Shown: piece after piece, positions 3,956-49,316 of the stretch
Numbering within the stretch: the stretch's first letter is position 1
Layout of the letters: every line of letters begins with the position of its first letter
Virus record (IMG/VR): IMGVR_UViG_3300034284_002793
Span: 1-64,000 of that record
DNA: 64,000 nucleotides
From: an uncultured virus (IMG/VR IMGVR_UViG_3300034284_002793)
Taxonomy: Duplodnaviria; Heunggongvirae; Uroviricota; Caudoviricetes
Strand: one strand, 5' to 3'
Notes under the pieces: generated by a model
Told to the model about the DNA's origin: nothing
Database searches by the model: none
What the model saw: the letters and a program-made list of their open reading frames with translations, nothing else
Position numbers and translations under genes: made by a program

Positions 3956-4027
3956 TAGAGGCAGTAGGACTTGAACCTACAACCCTCACCTTATCAAAGT
4001 GATGCTCTGCCATTGAGCTATGCCTCT
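3956..4027 (-). tRNA. trnI: tRNA-Ile(GAT)
   Basis: AGAGGCA/TGCCTCT acceptor; loop TTGATAA; TTGACA-17-TAATCT promoter upstream. Confidence 0.93.
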
Positions 4028-4078
4028 GCGTATTCATAGTTTAGATTATCTAAATTTTATTTAAATGTCAAAAAGAAA

Positions 4079-4160
4079 TGGGCATGAAGGGAGTCGAACC
4101 CCTACTCCTTACGGAACCAGATCCTAAGTCTGGCGCGGCTGCCAGTTACGCCACATGCCC
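4079..4160 (-). tRNA. trnL: tRNA-Leu(TAG)
   Basis: CCAGA-CTTAGGA-TCTGG anticodon arm, long variable arm. Confidence 0.95.
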
Positions 4161-27490: not shown

Positions 27491-27578
27491 CGGTGAGAGA
27501 GAGATTCGAACTCTCGGTAGACTTTTGGCCTACGGGACTTTAGCAAAGTCCTGCCTTAAACCGCTCGGCCATCTCACC
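27491..27578 (-). tRNA. trnS: tRNA-Ser(GCT)
   Basis: GGACT-TTGCTAA-AGTCC, long variable arm, G discriminator. Confidence 0.95.
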
Positions 27579-27604
27579 TAATAGCTAATAGCTAATAGCT
27601 AATA
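27578..27604. repeat. 7-bp tandem repeat (CTAATAG) x~3.9
   Basis: ctaatag ctaatag ctaatag ctaata. Confidence 0.9.
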
Positions 27605-27619
27605 TTTTTTTATAAAAAA

Positions 27620-28054
27620 TGGTGGAGGTGAGGGGAGTTGAACCCCTGTCCAATTAATTTACATTAAAAATTCTACATGTTTATGTGTTTTTGGCGTTTG
27701 ATTGGCTAAAGGCCACCTTGGCAACACAAGCCTAACTTTTAAAGCCTGCCTATGCAGAGAACGTTCTGCATAACGCCCAACAATTATTTTTACAATTAAG
27801 TTGGCTTGGTAAACCTATTGCGTTTCCAATGCTTTTAATAGGATCCAGACATTGGTTCTTAGGCTGCTAAGAGCATTTCGTCCTCAACGCCAGCGAGAAA
27901 CTCGTCAGCGTTGTTGAAGATATACTCGGCTTCAGCCAAGATATCAGAAGTATTATCTTCTGCGTTTAGTTTTTAATCGATTTTTAACGAGGCCGTCGAT
28001 CAACCTCGACATGCATTTTTAATTTCAACTAGCTGTCGAAACCAATACACCCCC
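27620..28054 (-). ncRNA. ssrA: tmRNA
   Basis: 5' GGGGGTG..TTCGAC, 3' T-arm and CACCTCC-ACCA with G3.U70; tag frame 27963..27859 ending LLAA-TAA. Confidence 0.97.
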
Positions 28055-28062
28055 CCAAAAAG

Positions 28063-28138
28063 TGGAGCCTGAGGTCGGACTCGAACCGACGACCACGCGA
28101 TTACAAATCGAGCGCTCTACCAACTGAGCTACACAGGC
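28063..28138 (-). tRNA. trnT: tRNA-Thr(TGT), CCA encoded
   Basis: Loop TTTGTAA; GCCTG../..CAGGC-T-CCA acceptor. Confidence 0.92.
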
Positions 28139-28146
28139 ATAAAAAT

Positions 28147-28220
28147 TGGAGCGGAATGAGAGAATCGAACTCTCGTTACCTGCTTGGAAGGCAGAAGTTT
28201 TACCATTAAACTAATCCCGC
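28147..28220 (-). tRNA. trnG: tRNA-Gly(TCC), CCA encoded
   Basis: GCGGGAT acceptor, loop CTTCCAA, U discriminator. Confidence 0.95.
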
Positions 28221-28224
28221 AAAA

Positions 28225-28297
28225 TCGGGCAGAGAGGACTCGAACCTCCGGTACCCTGCTCCCAAAGCAGGTGCCATAGCCACTAGGCGACTGCCCG
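28225..28297 (-). tRNA. trnP: tRNA-Pro(TGG)
   Basis: CGGGCAG/CTGCCCG-A; CCTGC-TTTGGGA-GCAGG. Confidence 0.95.
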
Positions 28298-28302
28298 TTA
28301 AA

Positions 28303-28396
28303 TGGTGGTTGATGTGGGAATCGAACCCACGCTCGGCCCTCATCTAGGGCACACAGTTTATAAAACTGTCGATGCTTCCAATTACATTAATCAACC
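28303..28396 (-). tRNA. tRNA with TAT anticodon (Ile) and long variable arm, CCA encoded
   Basis: GGTTGAT/ATCAACC-A-CCA; ACAGT-TTTATAA-ACTGT; V arm GCCCT-AGATG-AGGGC. Confidence 0.88.
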
Positions 28397-28403
28397 ATAA
28401 AAT

Positions 28404-28490
28404 TGGTAGCGGGGGTGGGATTTGAACCCACGAGGCCAAAGGGCGGTACGTTATGAGCGTACTGAGCTACCAGACTGCTCGCACCCCGCA
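28404..28490 (-). tRNA. atypical initiator-like tRNA(CAT) with variable arm, CCA encoded
   Basis: TGCGGGG/CCCCGCT with 1:72 mismatch; GAGC/GCTC D stem; GTACG-CTCATAA-CGTAC; 14-nt variable region. Confidence 0.85.
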
Positions 28491-42935: not shown

Positions 42936-45302
42936 TTATGCTTGTCCGGTCGCATATGGGCGCAATCTTTTTCTGATTTGTTGACCGGGCTCGGCACTTT
43001 CTGGAATATTCACATAAGAAAATTCACCAGACTTTAGCCAAGTAAGTTTTTGCTTGAATTTTTGCAAACGTCTCCATTTTTTATTTTTATATGTAAGTCC
43101 GCCAGAGGCCGCATCATTGTTGTAATTATATTCACTTGGAAATATTTTATTTACAAGCTGTAATATTTTTGAATTAATTTGCTTAATTGCTGCTGTTTTG
43201 GCAATATTTCTTGCATCATTCTCGGTTGGGCCTGACTTATAGGCTGTATAAACTAGATTGTTATAATCATCAATTGCATGGCGATAAGGATTTCTTTTTT
43301 GATGCCATGGTACCTCTCCGGAGACGATATATTGTGCTGATGGATTTGGAAATATTGTGTGTGCTCCAGCTGGGCTAATTCCTGTTTGTAGAACTTTATC
43401 AATACTGTCTAGGGTTCCATAGCCAGAATAAATAACTGAAATATTTCTATCATTTACAATTCCAATTTCAGTGTCAAGCGTGCAAGAAACCAACTCTACG
43501 GAAAATCTAACTCCTGAGGGGATTATTCCATTCCATGTTCCTGTAGCGATAACTTTATTATTATTTTTATATAATTGATTGTAAAATTTATAAAAATATG
43601 TATCTTTTAATGGATCTGCTTGTTTGAAGTGTCCATTAGGATTTATTGCATATTTTGTTCCAGTTGCTGTTCTGGTTGGGATTTGTATTCCAGAATTCAG
43701 TATTGTTTGGTAAGTTATTGATCTGCCACTGATAATGTATCCGCTCCATGCATTGCCTGTTGGCGCTGGGAGTTGTGTTTCTGGAGACATTCCTGTTGTT
43801 GCTGCTCTCCAAGCGCTATAAATAGGAACTTGATATGTATAATTTGTTTTGTATATGCCTTCTGGTAGCACCCTGCCGTCATCAATATACCGTGAATCAG
43901 GAATTAATGATGGCATTTGGAGCAGCTTTGAAAGCATTTTTCTTTCTTTTCTGCAGGTTTTAAAAGCGGATACTACCGGAGATTTAACTGATGCGCGATT
44001 CAGGTTAATTCCTGATGCTGCTCTTGGGTGACCGCTAGCAGGTATCCAAACCCCATCAAGCTTTCTTGGATCTGTTTTTTTCCAATCAGTTAGACTGTTT
44101 GGTTGATATATATATACAACGCCTCTTTGCCCCGTGTTTGTTGAGAGATTTACGTTTCCGCTTAGGCAAATAGCCCATGCGCCACTACCATATGGTGTAG
44201 ATATTGTACTATCAAAATATACTTGCCTTGCTGGTTTTTCAATGTTATAAAATCTTAACCTGCTAGTATCCTCTGATGGAATTGGTGACTCTTTATAATT
44301 TCCATTTAGCGTATCAAGATATCCATATTTTCCGCAACCAATAAATCCTGTTGTTCCAGAACCATACCATGAAGACTGATCGATGGTGGCCAATGAGTCT
44401 GCACCAGGAACAACAGTTTTAGTTAGTAACTGTGTTTCTGTGTATAGATCTTCAATAGTGTTTAAAAAACCAGTTTCTATAGTGTGAGGGCTCACATAGC
44501 AAATTGTTTTTTGTTCAGCATCACCAGTTGATATTAGTAATAGCCCGTTTATTGATTGTTCCGTTGGCGATTGGCCATTGTCTTGGTTAAATTTAGGAGC
44601 CAATTTGACTGGTACATTAAAAACTGGACTATCATAAACAGATACTGCGTTTGGATATGGGATATTGAACCCACTAAGATTCATATTATCATATGGTGAT
44701 TGTTGCTGTCCAGATTGAAATTGAGTGGATTGCTTATGCCAGCGATAGTATGCCTTTCTTGATTCCTCTTTTGATAATTTTCCTACAAATTTTGGGGAAA
44801 GTTCTTGTTTGCCAGAGCGTGTTTGGATTTCAATATCTAATGTGTTTGATGCTTTTTCTGGAAAGCGAAATCTTGCATATGAGAATGAATTTTTATTAAA
44901 TACGCGTTTTACAACTTTTTCTTCTGACCATGGCTTGAAAAAATTATTGTCTTTATAGCTATAATATTCTGAAGGAAAATGTATTTCCGATAATTGTCCT
45001 ACTAGTGGGGTGTTAATGCGATATCTTACAAGAAAGTGCTCTGAAGCAATGGTCTGCCTCCATGTTTTTAAAACTTTTACTTGTGCGCTATTTCCAAGCG
45101 TGCCTTCTACTGGTTTTCTAATTACTAGATATGGATTGGTCTTTCTTAATGGGCCAACATTTTCTAAATCCAAGAAAGCAGATTTTAGATTAAAAACTGC
45201 TGTTTTTTGCTGGTCTGTGAAGCCAATGTCTTCACCAGCCTTTGTATAGGCGCCAAAGCCTAGCTTTTGCAGGTCTTCTTTGGAAATAGAAAAATTATCC
45301 AT
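42936..45302 (-). CDS. large hypothetical, probably virion protein
   Basis: 788-aa ORF rich in SG/TG dipeptides like the structural genes. Confidence 0.7.
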   Translation of the reverse strand: MDNFSISKEDLQKLGFGAYTKAGEDIGFTDQQKTAVFNLKSAFLDLENVGPLRKTNPYLVIRKPVEGTLGNSAQVKVLKTWRQTIASEHFLVRYRINTPLVGQLSEIHFPSEYYSYKDNNFFKPWSEEKVVKRVFNKNSFSYARFRFPEKASNTLDIEIQTRSGKQELSPKFVGKLSKEESRKAYYRWHKQSTQFQSGQQQSPYDNMNLSGFNIPYPNAVSVYDSPVFNVPVKLAPKFNQDNGQSPTEQSINGLLLISTGDAEQKTICYVSPHTIETGFLNTIEDLYTETQLLTKTVVPGADSLATIDQSSWYGSGTTGFIGCGKYGYLDTLNGNYKESPIPSEDTSRLRFYNIEKPARQVYFDSTISTPYGSGAWAICLSGNVNLSTNTGQRGVVYIYQPNSLTDWKKTDPRKLDGVWIPASGHPRAASGINLNRASVKSPVVSAFKTCRKERKMLSKLLQMPSLIPDSRYIDDGRVLPEGIYKTNYTYQVPIYSAWRAATTGMSPETQLPAPTGNAWSGYIISGRSITYQTILNSGIQIPTRTATGTKYAINPNGHFKQADPLKDTYFYKFYNQLYKNNNKVIATGTWNGIIPSGVRFSVELVSCTLDTEIGIVNDRNISVIYSGYGTLDSIDKVLQTGISPAGAHTIFPNPSAQYIVSGEVPWHQKRNPYRHAIDDYNNLVYTAYKSGPTENDARNIAKTAAIKQINSKILQLVNKIFPSEYNYNNDAASGGLTYKNKKWRRLQKFKQKLTWLKSGEFSYVNIPESAEPGQQIRKRLRPYATGQA

Positions 45303-45329
45303 AAATTTTTAAAATTTTTTTTGATCTTT

Positions 45330-45716
45330 TAACGTCCGTTCTTAAACACTCCTATCTAGTCAAGTCATTTTATCCGTCCTGGCTTCTCAATCTGTTACCC
45401 TGGGGACAAGGCTGAGTTTACTTCTAGACGAATCCTCTCGGTGGACCTAACATTCTCAGAATGTGATCGATCAATTTGTTATCGTACAGTTGTTTATACC
45501 ATACATCTATATATTTCTATATAGTTCAGACTATATCTTGGTACCAAAAGTTAATTTGGCACACAGGGCGCTCTTGGGCAGTTTTATTGTTGGGACTCAA
45601 CCGCCTAGTCGTTACACCTTCTGTCCTATCTTTCCCAGACAGCTTGGCTCGGTATTGTCTTTTTGGCAAGTTATTCACCAACGAAGATATCCACCGAATT
45701 CACCCCGTAAACGCTA
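45330..45716 (-). ncRNA. ORF-less group I intron ribozyme (P7.1-containing, IA-like), not within a gene; candidate permuted form
   Basis: P AATTCGGTGGA (45700-45690), Q AATACCGAGCCAAG, R GTAACGACTA, S AAGATATAGTC (45539-45529); P3 CGGGGTG/CGCCCTG, P7 GACTA/TAGTC, P9 CTATATA-GAAA-TATATAG; terminal G 45472. Confidence 0.88.
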
Positions 45717-45724
45717 TTTAAATT

Positions 45725-45771
45725 TTTTAAAGAACTTGAGTAGATTTTACTACTAGCAAATACAATTACAC
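45725..45771 (-). promoter_or_regulatory. GTGTAA promoter motif, hairpin and boxA-like element
   Basis: GTGTAA (45771-45766), AGTAG-TAAAAT-CTACT hairpin, GTTCTTTAAAA (45735-45725). Confidence 0.6.
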
Positions 45772-45786
45772 TAAAAAATGTAGCTT

Positions 45787-45999
45787 TTACCTTTTGTTAT
45801 CATTTTTTTCAAAATCCCAGCAGTAATGACAAATTTCTGGAGTTACTTTAAATATATCCCTTTTTAAACATTTATAGCCAGAGTCTGTATAATCTCCGCC
45901 TTGACAGCTGCATCTACGGACAGTAACAGTTTCTTCTTTTTCAGATTTGTGCTTGCAGTTTTCGAATTTATATTCGCCCGTCATATTTTCTTCGCTCAT
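45787..45999 (-). CDS. small Cys-rich protein
   Basis: C.H..CSC..C..C..C. Confidence 0.7.
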   Translation of the reverse strand: MSEENMTGEYKFENCKHKSEKEETVTVRRCSCQGGDYTDSGYKCLKRDIFKVTPEICHYCWDFEKNDNKR

Positions 46000-46964
46000 A
46001 GGTTTTCAATTATTGAATAATTTGCGTCTTGAAATCCACCATTTAAAAATAGTTTAGATGTATCTGATACATTACATGCAGACCCATTCAGTTTGCAAAA
46101 AACATCAGAAAAATATTCAGCACTGCAAGATGTTAAATATGAAGACATGCTTAGCCTATTAATAAAACTATCTTCACTTTCCTCCATTGCCTTTGTATAG
46201 CTTTTTGGCATATTATCATCTAAATTTAAAATTCTATCTGAAAAATTAATTAAAATTGGCATAATTTGATCGTATTTGTCGTAAACCAGCTCTGCTGTTT
46301 TTGCATAATCTTGGCCATTTACTTTAAGATCTAATTTTGGGTACTCATTGTATCCCCATTCAAACACATATGAGATATCATTTGTATAAAATTCGCCAGA
46401 AAAATTATCTCTTACGATAAACTTATCAAAAGATTTTATATTTAAAAACACTGCCGTATTAAAAATTAAATTAAATGCTTGATTAATATAAAATTTCTTT
46501 GCTAATTCTGGCTGATCTTTGAATTTTGGCCCAGAGCATTTAATTGAGAAAAATTTTGCTTTTTTTAAAATTCCTCCTGACATCAATCGCGCAAAATCTT
46601 GATCTAAAAAATATGGAAAATTACAATAAAATATTTTTTGGCTATTTGATTTTTTTAATAAAAGATCGTATATCTCTTTTCTCTCTGATATAGAATTACA
46701 AACAGGTGATTCGCATATAATATGTTTATTAAGCTCTATACCGCTTTTGAGATATTCAAATTGAGATTCTCTTGGTGTGGCAACATACCACATGTCTGAA
46801 TTATTTAAAATTTCTTTTTTATTAGATTCATCAGTAGATGTATTTATTGATCCAATAATTTCATATCTGCTGATAAGGCTGGCAACATTTTGGACTTGGG
46901 AGCCCCACTCGCCATTACCAATAATAGCAACTTTTATTTTAGACTTGGCTAATTGAGAATCCAT
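45996..46964 (-). CDS. Gfo/Idh/MocA-like oxidoreductase (divergent)
   Basis: KVAIIG.G.WG, VATP, HIICESP (EKP-like). Confidence 0.7.
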   Translation of the reverse strand: MDSQLAKSKIKVAIIGNGEWGSQVQNVASLISRYEIIGSINTSTDESNKKEILNNSDMWYVATPRESQFEYLKSGIELNKHIICESPVCNSISERKEIYDLLLKKSNSQKIFYCNFPYFLDQDFARLMSGGILKKAKFFSIKCSGPKFKDQPELAKKFYINQAFNLIFNTAVFLNIKSFDKFIVRDNFSGEFYTNDISYVFEWGYNEYPKLDLKVNGQDYAKTAELVYDKYDQIMPILINFSDRILNLDDNMPKSYTKAMEESEDSFINRLSMSSYLTSCSAEYFSDVFCKLNGSACNVSDTSKLFLNGGFQDANYSIIENL

Positions 46965-46997
46965 ATGTTTAATATTATATGTGTCTTTTGTAACAAA

Positions 46998-49316
46998 TCA
47001 AAATATATAACCACTCCACCATTTTTGATCATAATTTCTCAAATCTATCATAAATTGGTCCATTTGATCATTTAGCATTCTTAATCTATCAAATTTACTT
47101 GGCTCTTTGTACCAACCAATATTTGGATCACTCCAGTCTATTATTGGTACATTATTTATGCCAGAAACTGAAAGTGTTGGAAATTCCTCTATGGGACCTG
47201 AAACATAAAAATCATTGTTATTTTGACTTGTAATTGCAAAACTTCCACTTTCTGGATTCCCTAATATTTTTTTTGCCAATTCTAGCATTTTTTTATAATC
47301 TTTTATATTTTTCCCATCGCTATCTTTTGCAAAATTTCCGCTAGTATCTTTTAAAAAATTTTCACCAGTCATTCCTAAAAATTGCATTGGCAAGTCAGTA
47401 GAAAAATAATTTTGATGATTGTTAAAATCATCCACCCAATAATCTCTTCCAATAACTCCTCCATGCAAATTTCCATCGTATGGTGATGTTTTTCTCTGCG
47501 CAGCGCAAGCATATGGGTTTGGAAAATAATATCTTCCAGGAGTTAAATCATTTAACATCTCACCAAGTAGGCATTCTTTAAATTCATTATCTCCAGATTT
47601 AAAATATAAATTATATGGAGTTTTTATAGATTTTTTTTCTATTCTATCAATCCATAAAAATGGATAATATTTTTCAGATTCAGCTATGCCATCAAATAGG
47701 TTAAAATATTGGTCTACGTTCAATCTTCTTGAGCCATTGCCATTTAAAACAATATCGCCACTTTTCAATATTGTTTTACAAAAAACATTTTTTCTCATAA
47801 TGGTGAGAGGATTGGTATCTTCAAAGTATAACGCTGGCATGCCAAAACTATCAAATGATGTTATCGCTGGAGTTACCTCTGCTTTTAGAGGTTTTGGAAT
47901 ATCAACGTAAAGCCAATTATATTTAAATATATCTTTTCTTACGTTGTGATTGTAGTGTTTTACAGCGACATTTCTGATAAGATATCCAGCGTCATCCGCC
48001 CCACCATTAGTTCTAAATCCAAAAAATATAGAATCTTTTGCTTGACCACTAACTGTTCCGCTCGCTATTCCATCTTCTATATAAAATCCACTACTATTTG
48101 TTCGAGTGGCATATGCGAATTTTTCATCATTTTCAATATATATATAATCCTGACCTTCTATTTTGCCACCTAAATTTTTTGGATCTAGTTGTGATCCTAA
48201 TAAATATCCAGATGGAGGGTTATTTAAACCTCCGCGATTAAAAATTTGAGCAGTATAATAATCCACCTCCCCATCAATAAAAAGCCTGTCTTGTGCAAAA
48301 TGATCCCAAAGTATAGATTTTTTTTCTATATCGTCTTGACCCAATTGCTGCTTTATACTTTCAGTATATTCTATAAATTTACCAGGAAGCCTTTGTGGAA
48401 TACCATCGGAAGAATTAAAATCAAAAATTGAAGAAACGACCGAATATCTCATAAACCATGGGTCTATGCATGCCACAAGAATACAAAATATAATACATCC
48501 ACAATATGAGCATGTTGCAGTTTTGGATACTAGGTAGTTTTGCCAGCCTATCGTCGGCTCTGGACCTCGAACTATTGTCCCATTATAATCCGTCAAAAAT
48601 TTTTCTGATGGAAATAATTCATTTTTTGCAGCTTTATCTGTAAGCCAATATTGGTCAAGGGCATAAATAACTAAATTAAGGGCATGCTCTCCGTTTCCAA
48701 TACAGCTATGGCCTTTATAAGAACAAACATAGCATGGCTCTCCGCATCCGCCAATCCAAAAACTTATAGACAGTGGGGAGAGTATATACGGCCACCAACC
48801 ATACTCTCTCCATTTTACAACTTCTCCAGTTAGTTCGTTAATATTTTCACTAAGTATGTCCTGATAATAATCTTTGACTAATTTTGTATTTCGTCCAAGC
48901 GCTGTTTGATCAGGCTTTGTAACAATACTGTCGTTTTTAACTAAATTGTATCTCGAATATGTGCTAAGGCATTTTTGATCGACGGATGTAGGGCGCTGCC
49001 CTTCGCGTGTAAAATCGCTATAAACCCAATTTTGAAAATTTGTTACAAATCCAAATAGTGGGGGGTTATTTGTAGAATATTTTTCTAAATCAACGTATTT
49101 TGGATTTTGCCAATGCCATGGCACGCCATATTCTTCTTTTATGCTACCAAATTTTGATGCAAGATAGCTTATAGAGCGTGTTGCTCCTATAAAGTATGTG
49201 CCAGATTGGCATGACAAGTCTTTATTTTCATTTTCTTCCGTGCCTTGGCCGGTGCGAATAATTCTTAAATTTGCTAAATTTGGATAATTGCACTGATTTA
49301 AATAATAATTTGACAT
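46998..49316 (-). CDS. large hypothetical protein, Cys/Trp/Tyr-rich
   Basis: 772-aa ORF. Confidence 0.75.
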   Translation of the reverse strand: MSNYYLNQCNYPNLANLRIIRTGQGTEENENKDLSCQSGTYFIGATRSISYLASKFGSIKEEYGVPWHWQNPKYVDLEKYSTNNPPLFGFVTNFQNWVYSDFTREGQRPTSVDQKCLSTYSRYNLVKNDSIVTKPDQTALGRNTKLVKDYYQDILSENINELTGEVVKWREYGWWPYILSPLSISFWIGGCGEPCYVCSYKGHSCIGNGEHALNLVIYALDQYWLTDKAAKNELFPSEKFLTDYNGTIVRGPEPTIGWQNYLVSKTATCSYCGCIIFCILVACIDPWFMRYSVVSSIFDFNSSDGIPQRLPGKFIEYTESIKQQLGQDDIEKKSILWDHFAQDRLFIDGEVDYYTAQIFNRGGLNNPPSGYLLGSQLDPKNLGGKIEGQDYIYIENDEKFAYATRTNSSGFYIEDGIASGTVSGQAKDSIFFGFRTNGGADDAGYLIRNVAVKHYNHNVRKDIFKYNWLYVDIPKPLKAEVTPAITSFDSFGMPALYFEDTNPLTIMRKNVFCKTILKSGDIVLNGNGSRRLNVDQYFNLFDGIAESEKYYPFLWIDRIEKKSIKTPYNLYFKSGDNEFKECLLGEMLNDLTPGRYYFPNPYACAAQRKTSPYDGNLHGGVIGRDYWVDDFNNHQNYFSTDLPMQFLGMTGENFLKDTSGNFAKDSDGKNIKDYKKMLELAKKILGNPESGSFAITSQNNNDFYVSGPIEEFPTLSVSGINNVPIIDWSDPNIGWYKEPSKFDRLRMLNDQMDQFMIDLRNYDQKWWSGYIF

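Follow-up and report, generated by a model that had tools for sequence, protein, structure and literature searches.

The window analysed here, a stretch of 64,000 nucleotides from a 132.6-kb viral record obtained from lake water, very probably encodes a natural permuted group I ribozyme that back-splices and circularises its exon, with a circular RNA as the likely purpose. The element lies on the minus strand between two complete ORFs, and its 3' splice site stands 140 nt upstream of its 5' splice site. The circular exon junction expected of such an arrangement is present in RNA at the contig level in a close variant, as a repeat of 26 letters. A first-pass annotation of this DNA had proposed a stand-alone group I ribozyme interrupting no gene, with its 5' splice site downstream of its 3' splice site; the complete flanking ORFs bore out the former, and the geometry of P1, the covariation of the guide and the RNA junction bore out the latter. 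The features of the element are listed in Table 1.

Table 1. Features of the permuted group I element and its flanks in the window, in transcript order; an arrow marks a splice site.
Feature	Position	Strand	Basis or remark
70-aa Cys-rich ORF, complete	45999-45787	-	upstream flank of the element; stop at 45787
GUGUAAU box, promoter-like	45765..45771	-	38 nt before the UCUUU leader in the window; putative role
Degenerate box GUAAAAU	45744..45750	-	usual -17 position of the family; aligns with GUGUAAU of L057; putative role
Short leader ACUCAAGU	45734..45741	-	omega-G attack after U45734 proposed from an RNA contig
Leader motif UCUUUAAAAAAUUUAAA	45717..45733	-	conserved; no covariation with the guide
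Internal guide sequence, 3' strand of P1, UAGCGUUU	45709..45716	-	wobble partner G45714, 7 nt before P3
Catalytic core P3, P4, P5, P5a, P6, P6a, P7, P7.1, P8, P9 (GAAA loop), P9.1 and tail GAUAACAAAUUG	45472..45707	-	Rfam and covariation
P3 CGGGGUG / CGCCCUG	45707-45701 / 45570-45564	-	
P4 UUCGGU / ACCGAG		-	
P7 GACUA / UAGUC	45610-45606 / 45533-45529	-	
P7.1 GGCGGUU / AACUGCC		-	
P9, GAAA loop	45524-45507	-	
omega-G, 3' splice site G45472↓A45471	45472	-	RNA junctions, conservation break, end of a homologous phage intron
Exon, 140 nt, branched rod, released as circular RNA	45332..45471	-	RNA contigs, covariation
5' strand of P1, GGACGU↓UA within GGACGUUA	45330..45337	-	5' splice site after U45332
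A-rich spacer, 29 nt	45303..45331	-	predicted start of the downstream mRNA once guanosine has attacked, from group I chemistry
788-aa ORF	42936..45302	-	start 45302; protein family behind 12 of the elements

The core appears from its sequence to be a complete group I core of the IA type. Rfam RF00028 matched positions 45789-45507 (-) of the native sequence with 71.6 bits against a gathering score of 50 (E 3.7e-18, score and E-value from a scan of 701 bases), and the helices P3 to P9 together with the ...GAUAACAAAUUG end were all present at the places on the minus strand where they had first been read. Across the three DNA variants compared below, the core helices (helices 2-11) comprise 64 pairs, 10 of them with double changes, and 96-100% of cells are paired in each helix. 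The element also has a terminal omega-G, and its internal guide forms a P1 that places a U.G wobble at the 5' splice site, with the substrate strand downstream of the core. The earlier identification of G45472 as omega-G is borne out by both RNA junctions described below and by homology with the 3' end of an intron that splits a phage gene: this intron, from the tape-measure gene of a Clostridium phage, has a related core, and ...ACGAUAACAAAAUG↓ likewise stands where it meets its exon. In addition, conservation against the related locus L006 is near-perfect as far as G45472 (...AAUUG); it then disappears over some 30 nt before returning in blocks. A weak blast match of P7-P9 near 52,000 was considered as a second copy of the element and rejected, as the local Rfam scan gave no group I match there.

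The guide UAGCGUUU (45716-45709) pairs with GGACGUUA (45337-45330) in a run of 8 bp, and the wobble U45332.G45714 of this run falls at the circle junction. The first-pass annotation had noted this pairing but read it as a P2 split across the transcript ends; the pairing exists, and its wobble at the RNA junction and its covariation identify it as the true P1. The pairing that had been taken for P1, ACAUUCU with GGAGUGU and a guide at 45352-45346, is instead helix 13, the covarying stem that closes the exon rod, with five of its seven pairs changed on both sides. Both downstream pairings thus covary in homologues as had been anticipated, but one of them does so as an exon stem. The proposed 5' splice site after 45458 and the resulting 14-nt exon had to be replaced: the RNA junction and the wobble place the 5' splice site after U45332, and the exon measures 140 nt (45471-45332). 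Concatemers and trans-splicing, the fall-backs suggested for so short an exon, are needless because a 140-nt exon circularises in cis.

The complementarity of the guide is by itself not above chance: the 64-kb strand holds 75 such 8-bp runs, and within 222 nt after omega-G there are two 8-bp partners, the second at 45455-45448. What supports P1, given so GU-rich a guide, is its position, its covariation and the junction seen in RNA. The guide of L006, likewise 7 nt from P3, reads GUCC against GCGU in the window; C,G,U at its positions 2-4 are replaced by U,C,C, and the downstream partner has A,G,G instead of G,C,A at the homologous place. The P1 partner is thereby GGAU↓ in L006 against ACGU↓ in the window, amounting to three double changes when the comparison is anchored on the junction, of which a MAFFT alignment displays one because of gap placement.

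No conventional P1 or P2 upstream of the core is conserved in any family member examined, which agrees with the initial reading that none lies there, but the forced full-length Rfam alignment does lay P1 and P2 on 45789-45741, a stretch unconserved in relatives. The element has no P2. The leader motif UCUUUAAAA... at 45717-45733 (-) would resemble a boxA antitermination element, a likeness that the first-pass annotation had also noted.

Four metatranscriptome runs were compared with the window as assembled contigs, amongst them X23 and X24, which come from different studies. Both contain a 169-nt contig, a close variant of the window with 8 differences and 1 gap in the 140 nt, that runs from 45471 to 45332 (contig positions 5-143) and then again from 45471 to 45446 (positions 144-169). 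RNA in which U45332 is followed by A45471 therefore exists in a close variant, and the two sides of this junction lie after omega-G and at the U of the P1 U.G wobble. The length of 169 equals a 139-nt unit plus 30, as expected of a closed cycle assembled from words of 31 letters, which we take to be the word size of the assembler. The back-joined piece of 26 letters is below the 31-letter bridging rule, and no joint stands in the joint table of the tool. On the DNA side, a single linear copy of the unit is found in each of five records (the window, L005, L006, L056 and L057).

In X24, the depth was 42 for the circle contig and 8 for the core. Another contig of this run (record 7) extends from 45739 to 45475 and ends in 25 loose letters, which in RNA sense are AUUG followed by 21 nt of 45733-45713 with the same 1-nt deletion at 45723 as the contig itself. 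This contig joins omega-G 45472 to U45733, the junction of a ribozyme circle, as seen in the 25-letter loose end of one contig. The contigs of X23 and X24 both stop at about 45741, which hints weakly that an RNA may begin there. Contigs identical to the window (X19, X20) cover the core only. No RNA contig lies on the flanking ORFs and none skips the core, which at such thin contig cover shows nothing either way. A 309-nt RNA contig of X23 (record 4) shares with the window only a 34-nt P7-P9 stretch (45539-45506) and has different flanks, so that the RNA of this sample includes a further group I ribozyme of the same broad type.

From these data, the following course of events is proposed. The transcript would carry a short leader, the guide UAGCGUUU directly before P3, the core up to omega-G 45472, the 140-nt exon, and GGACGU ending at U45332. 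Following group I chemistry, the guide and GGACGU↓UA would form P1, and free guanosine would attack after U45332, releasing the downstream RNA (the 29-nt A-rich leader and the 788-aa ORF), which would then begin with that guanosine. The 3'-OH of U45332 would then attack G45472↓A45471 and close the 140-nt circle, a product that was seen as RNA. Finally, omega-G of the freed ribozyme would attack after U45734, yielding a 262-nt ribozyme circle with the leader removed, a product that was seen once; closure by omega-G attack is the usual fate of excised group I introns. The upstream site AGU↓UCUUU may also be a target of the ribozyme, in which case a conventional reaction at AGU↓U may compete as a minor pathway.

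The predicted structure was evaluated on three natural DNA variants, the third of which (L057) came from a metagenome scan, for 114 pairs that include P1, the core helices and the exon fold. Over the whole model, 97.6% of 338 cells are paired and 27 of the 114 pairs change on both sides, a number reached by none of 500 shuffles and compared with 0-4 in slid controls. The exon fold has 42 pairs, 17 of them with double changes, and it is this covariation that argues for it; the folding energy of the circle is not exceptional (z = -0.6, -1.9 and +0.6 in the three variants). A coding function of the circle was considered and rejected, the variants measuring 140, 135 and 141 nt with stops in every frame and no conserved reading frame.

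The exon carries an invariant CC-GAGA-GG hairpin together with conserved GAAGUAAACUCAGCC and CAGAUUGAGAAGCC blocks. The hairpin, at 45442-45433 (-) in the window, has a GNRA-type loop, is unchanged in the three close variants and could provide a tetraloop contact standing in for the missing P2. The block GAAGUAAA is a further feature of the circle. Additionally, GUAAAC in the conserved exon block GAAGUAAAC (45424-45415) is complementary to GUUUAC in the linker between guide and P3 (45712-45707, -), and similar A/U-rich matches can be drawn in other members; this match could be a docking contact, a contact that orders the steps, or chance.

Related elements were found in other uncultured phages. 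A blast search against contigs of distant relatives gave four further copies on the 147-kb contig G001 (the contig of L069). These minus-strand cassettes of ribozyme, exon and ORF lie near 95,130, 100,650, 104,530 and 112,810 (L102, L103, L088 and L114), each with its own box, with three different guides among the four and with paralogous large ORFs; several tRNA genes stand beside L114 on the opposite strand. A family signature, consisting of the leader motif and then the P3-P4 strand, matched 41 viral loci, and an nhmmer profile of seven known ribozymes recognised 20 of these and none of 80 bacterial-genome loci. With the window and L057, the total is 22 elements, of which at least 19 are distinct; they come from 18 viral or metagenome records. 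RF00028 scored above its cut-off in 7 of the 15 family loci tested. The universality of the leader motif is partly built in, because the scan pattern contained it; UCUUU(A/U)AAA is present in all seven elements that were found without using it.

A 15-mer from the exon hit 45 viral loci, of which three contigs share more of the element and the rest are chance matches, and two loci found with an 18-mer from P3-P4 (L061 and L065) were dropped as GC-rich chance matches. The exon-block pattern had no match in bacterial genomes. The family signature gave at least 120 matches in bacterial genomes, with a ribozyme in none of the 80 loci examined; 28 of the matches have a uniform length of 40 nt, with Flavobacterium and related bins among the examples, and look like the antisense of a gene start in eight examples judged by eye.

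Members share a common layout of box, leader (A)GU↓UCUUU(A/U)AAA, variable guide, core, ...AUAAC...UG and a structured stretch, followed by the complement of the guide ending in U, an A-run and usually the ATG of a large ORF. The guide's G stands 7 or 8 nt before P3, and 11 different guide cores occur among the elements. A GT[GA]TAA box precedes UCUUU by 16-19 nt in 14 of 19 elements. In 15 of 19, the guide complement with its final U ranks first, alone or tied, among the anchored sites before the next ORF; it ranks lower in two, and in L094 and L117 it lies further upstream of the ORF. One locus, L116, was left out of the guide ranking and matrix because it ends early, though its site is visible by inspection. 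The cleavage site so predicted lies 2-39 nt before the ATG of the next ORF in 15 of 19 elements, and predicted exon lengths range over 66-192 nt in those 10 elements for which the automated pick is the site before the next ORF.

When guides were compared with the 45-nt zones before the ATGs, the mean run was 4.83 for cognate pairs against 3.50 for 290 non-cognate pairs, a difference to be read with the relatedness, and thus non-independence, of some elements; none of 5000 permutations reached the cognate mean. At the level of single loci the signal is weaker, as 41% of the non-cognate pairs reach 4 bp and, in 9 of 19 elements, an unrestricted search for the longest run settles on a different site. 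A hairpin and T-run terminator directly follows the predicted 5' splice site in L094 and L117, and a new GTGTAA box stands before the ORF, so that ribozyme and exon can be a transcription unit of their own. The predicted cleavage site of L117, about 60 nt before the ORF on the minus strand, has C-G in place of the U.G wobble (GGGGCC↓AAAC), and this locus may be a disabled copy.

The box at the head of these elements also occurs elsewhere. On the gene-coding strand of the genome to which the window belongs, 13 of 22 copies of GTGTAAW lie at most 60 nt upstream of the ATG of a long ORF, often by 14 or 21 nt, as compared with 1 of 14 for the reversed motif and 0 of 14 on the other strand. This placement indicates that the box is probably a phage promoter element, and its fixed distance of 14 or 21 nt from the ATG on the minus strand of G000 suggests very short or absent mRNA leaders in this phage. 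Sigma-70 promoters and terminators were not found on the minus strand in 45150-46100.

The genes around the element have replication, nucleotide and sugar-nucleotide functions. The window phage appears to have no close cultured relative, its helicase being at most 27.4% identical to the proteins among the 12 matches listed. Both flanking ORFs are intact in the window and in L006, so that there is no split gene for the group I element to restore; the ligation would instead unite both ends of a single non-coding exon. An in-frame TAA (45311-45309) precedes the ATG of the 788-aa ORF. The 788-aa protein had no family or structure match in Pfam, PHROGs, Atlas or PDB, and the idea that its ORF is a paralogue of the neighbouring 772-aa ORF was rejected on comparison; an N-terminal motif is common to 12 downstream ORFs across the elements. 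In the related contig L003/L006, the same gene pair encloses a ribozyme 90% identical to that of the window, with the small protein 79-82% and the large one 44% identical. Four more distant phages share the backbone of 358-aa, small, 122-aa and 363-aa ORFs, with neither spacer nor ribozyme, whereas in the window and L006 the ribozyme, the exon, the large ORF and two small ORFs are inserted between the small ORF and the 122-aa gene.

Some further features of the window were noted. Compared with L006 and the distant relatives, 45996-49316 (-) has an insertion that separates the gene for GDP-mannose 4,6-dehydratase from the small Cys-rich ORF and comprises a 772-aa ORF and an oxidoreductase of the GFO/IDH/MocA type. 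A tmRNA (152.7 bits) at 27620-28054 (-) has a long insertion in its tag region and tRNA genes on both sides. Transfer RNAs lie at 8-765, 1873-1943, 3956-4160 and 27491-28490 (-), 12 at the gathering score and 13 with permissive filters.

Several other explanations of these observations were weighed. The chemistry could be as proposed but serve mRNA processing, with the ribozyme freeing the downstream mRNA and the circle arising as a by-product. We consider this unlikely, though worth keeping in view: cleavage 2-39 nt before the ATG in 15 of 19 elements and the N-terminal motif of 12 downstream ORFs speak for it, but in L094 and L117 a terminator directly follows the cleavage site and the ORF has its own box, the same box in L117 stands directly before an ORF without ribozyme, the exon fold is kept through 17 double changes, and no other species in X24 is as abundant as the circle. 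A stable, structured circular RNA is thus the most likely purpose, because members are either co-transcribed with the next gene or, in two cases, have their own terminator. It is improbable that the element is a conventional cis-splicing intron of a 5' untranslated region, in which the 5' splice site would be AGU↓U (45734↓45733), the 3' splice site G45472, the exon domain would stay linear and the junction of omega-G to U45733 would mark an intron circle. That junction is indeed found in an RNA contig, (A)GU↓UCUUU is conserved in most members, and in the window type UCUUUAAA can pair with UUUAAAUA beside the guide. Such an intron, however, cannot give the junction U45332↓A45471; leader and guide pair by at most 2 bp, the leader is unchanged when the guide changes, and no core-skipping contig was seen, at thin cover.

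An assembly artefact, or a tandem DNA duplication of the 140-nt unit in the variant phage, could in principle produce the circular contigs, given that the evidence consists of contigs rather than reads and that the repeated part has 26 letters. We regard this as very improbable in view of the identical 169-nt record in two runs from two studies, its length of unit plus 30, the coincidence of its junction with omega-G and the P1 wobble, and the one copy in each of the five DNA records. That the element is an inactive, decaying remnant of a mobile intron between genes seems hardly credible. It splits no gene, and the module is absent from four more distant relatives with the same neighbourhood, both of which would fit a remnant; yet phages with 44% and 79% identity in the flanking proteins have cores that agree to 90%, compensatory changes preserve every helix, about 20 copies have intact cores, and RNA products were seen.

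Beyond the window, the back-splicing ribozyme may belong to a freshwater phage family of circular-RNA genes, a broader reading to which we give about even chances. Such genes would be box-led permuted ribozymes with freely evolvable guides that excise and circularise any structured RNA of 66-192 nt placed between omega-G and the guide complement; the circles would act as effectors during infection (e.g., stable protein- or RNA-binding decoys), and the same cut would trim the mRNA behind. If this is correct, the role of small structured circular RNAs in phage infection becomes a question, and small P2-less ribozymes with varied guides may serve scar-free circularisation. Additionally, annotation pipelines skip orphan group I cores between genes, yet such a core can itself be a gene.

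Amongst known group I ribozymes, the GIR1 lariat-capping and the c-di-GMP-controlled Clostridioides difficile ribozymes sit before an ORF and shape the 5' end of its mRNA. Neither is known to make a circular exon, and in 45200-45900 there was no Rfam match at E up to 10 to the GIR1 lariat-capping ribozyme or to any riboswitch, the c-di-GMP aptamer included. Related in core sequence is the tape-measure intron of Clostridium phage phiCP13O, with 71.7% identity over 186 nt to the six Clostridium phage records among the matches listed and the same 3' end; the other 81 matching records share an identical 34-nt P7-P9 stretch. This intron and the other conventional IA-type phage introns, such as those of Staphylococcus Twort-like and Lactococcus phages, split protein genes and have P1 and P2 at the 5' end, in contrast to the window element, which splits nothing and has its P1 substrate downstream.

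Permuted group I circular RNA is a mainstay of RNA engineering and is treated as a laboratory invention. A search of the literature, covering titles and abstract openings of the best-ranked matches and mostly journals outside subscription, gave no natural permuted group I case from a phage or bacterium, and the only natural precedent found is mitochondrial. Engineered permuted intron-exon (PIE) and ribozyme-at-one-end systems (Tetrahymena-based, PMC10415121; cis-splicing, PMC11417360; CIRC/PIET, PMC12336344) share with the phage element the order of core, 3' splice site, exon and 5' splice site, an upstream guide that pairs with the end of the insert, and a circular exon. Those are laboratory constructs, whereas the phage element is natural and promoter-led, lacks P2, has its break in the P1 loop and often holds a gene in the formal rest of the intron. 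The precedent is the ND5-717 group I intron of corallimorpharian mitochondria, a natural case of group I back-splicing and, according to its authors, the first (Chi et al. 2019, PMC6545197). In that case a giant intron that spans the mitochondrial genome gives rise to the permutation and the exons code for ND5, as opposed to a phage unit of 0.4 kb with a small non-coding circle and a multi-copy family. If our reading is correct, this compact, multi-copy and naturally optimised phage version shows that nature uses the same trick as the engineers.

The nearest parallel in kind is provided by the circularly permuted group II ribozymes of bacteria, which make RNA circles of 15-86 nt of unknown function with no ORF inside (Roth et al. 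2021, PMC8637638). Both systems would be natural and self-splicing, with a reversed order of splice sites and small circles as products; the group II ribozymes differ in their class, in their use of branching, in having D5-D6 at the front and in their occurrence in bacteria. Should the broader family reading hold, the phage elements would constitute the group I counterpart of these group II ribozymes and be the first gene family in phages that produces circular RNA.
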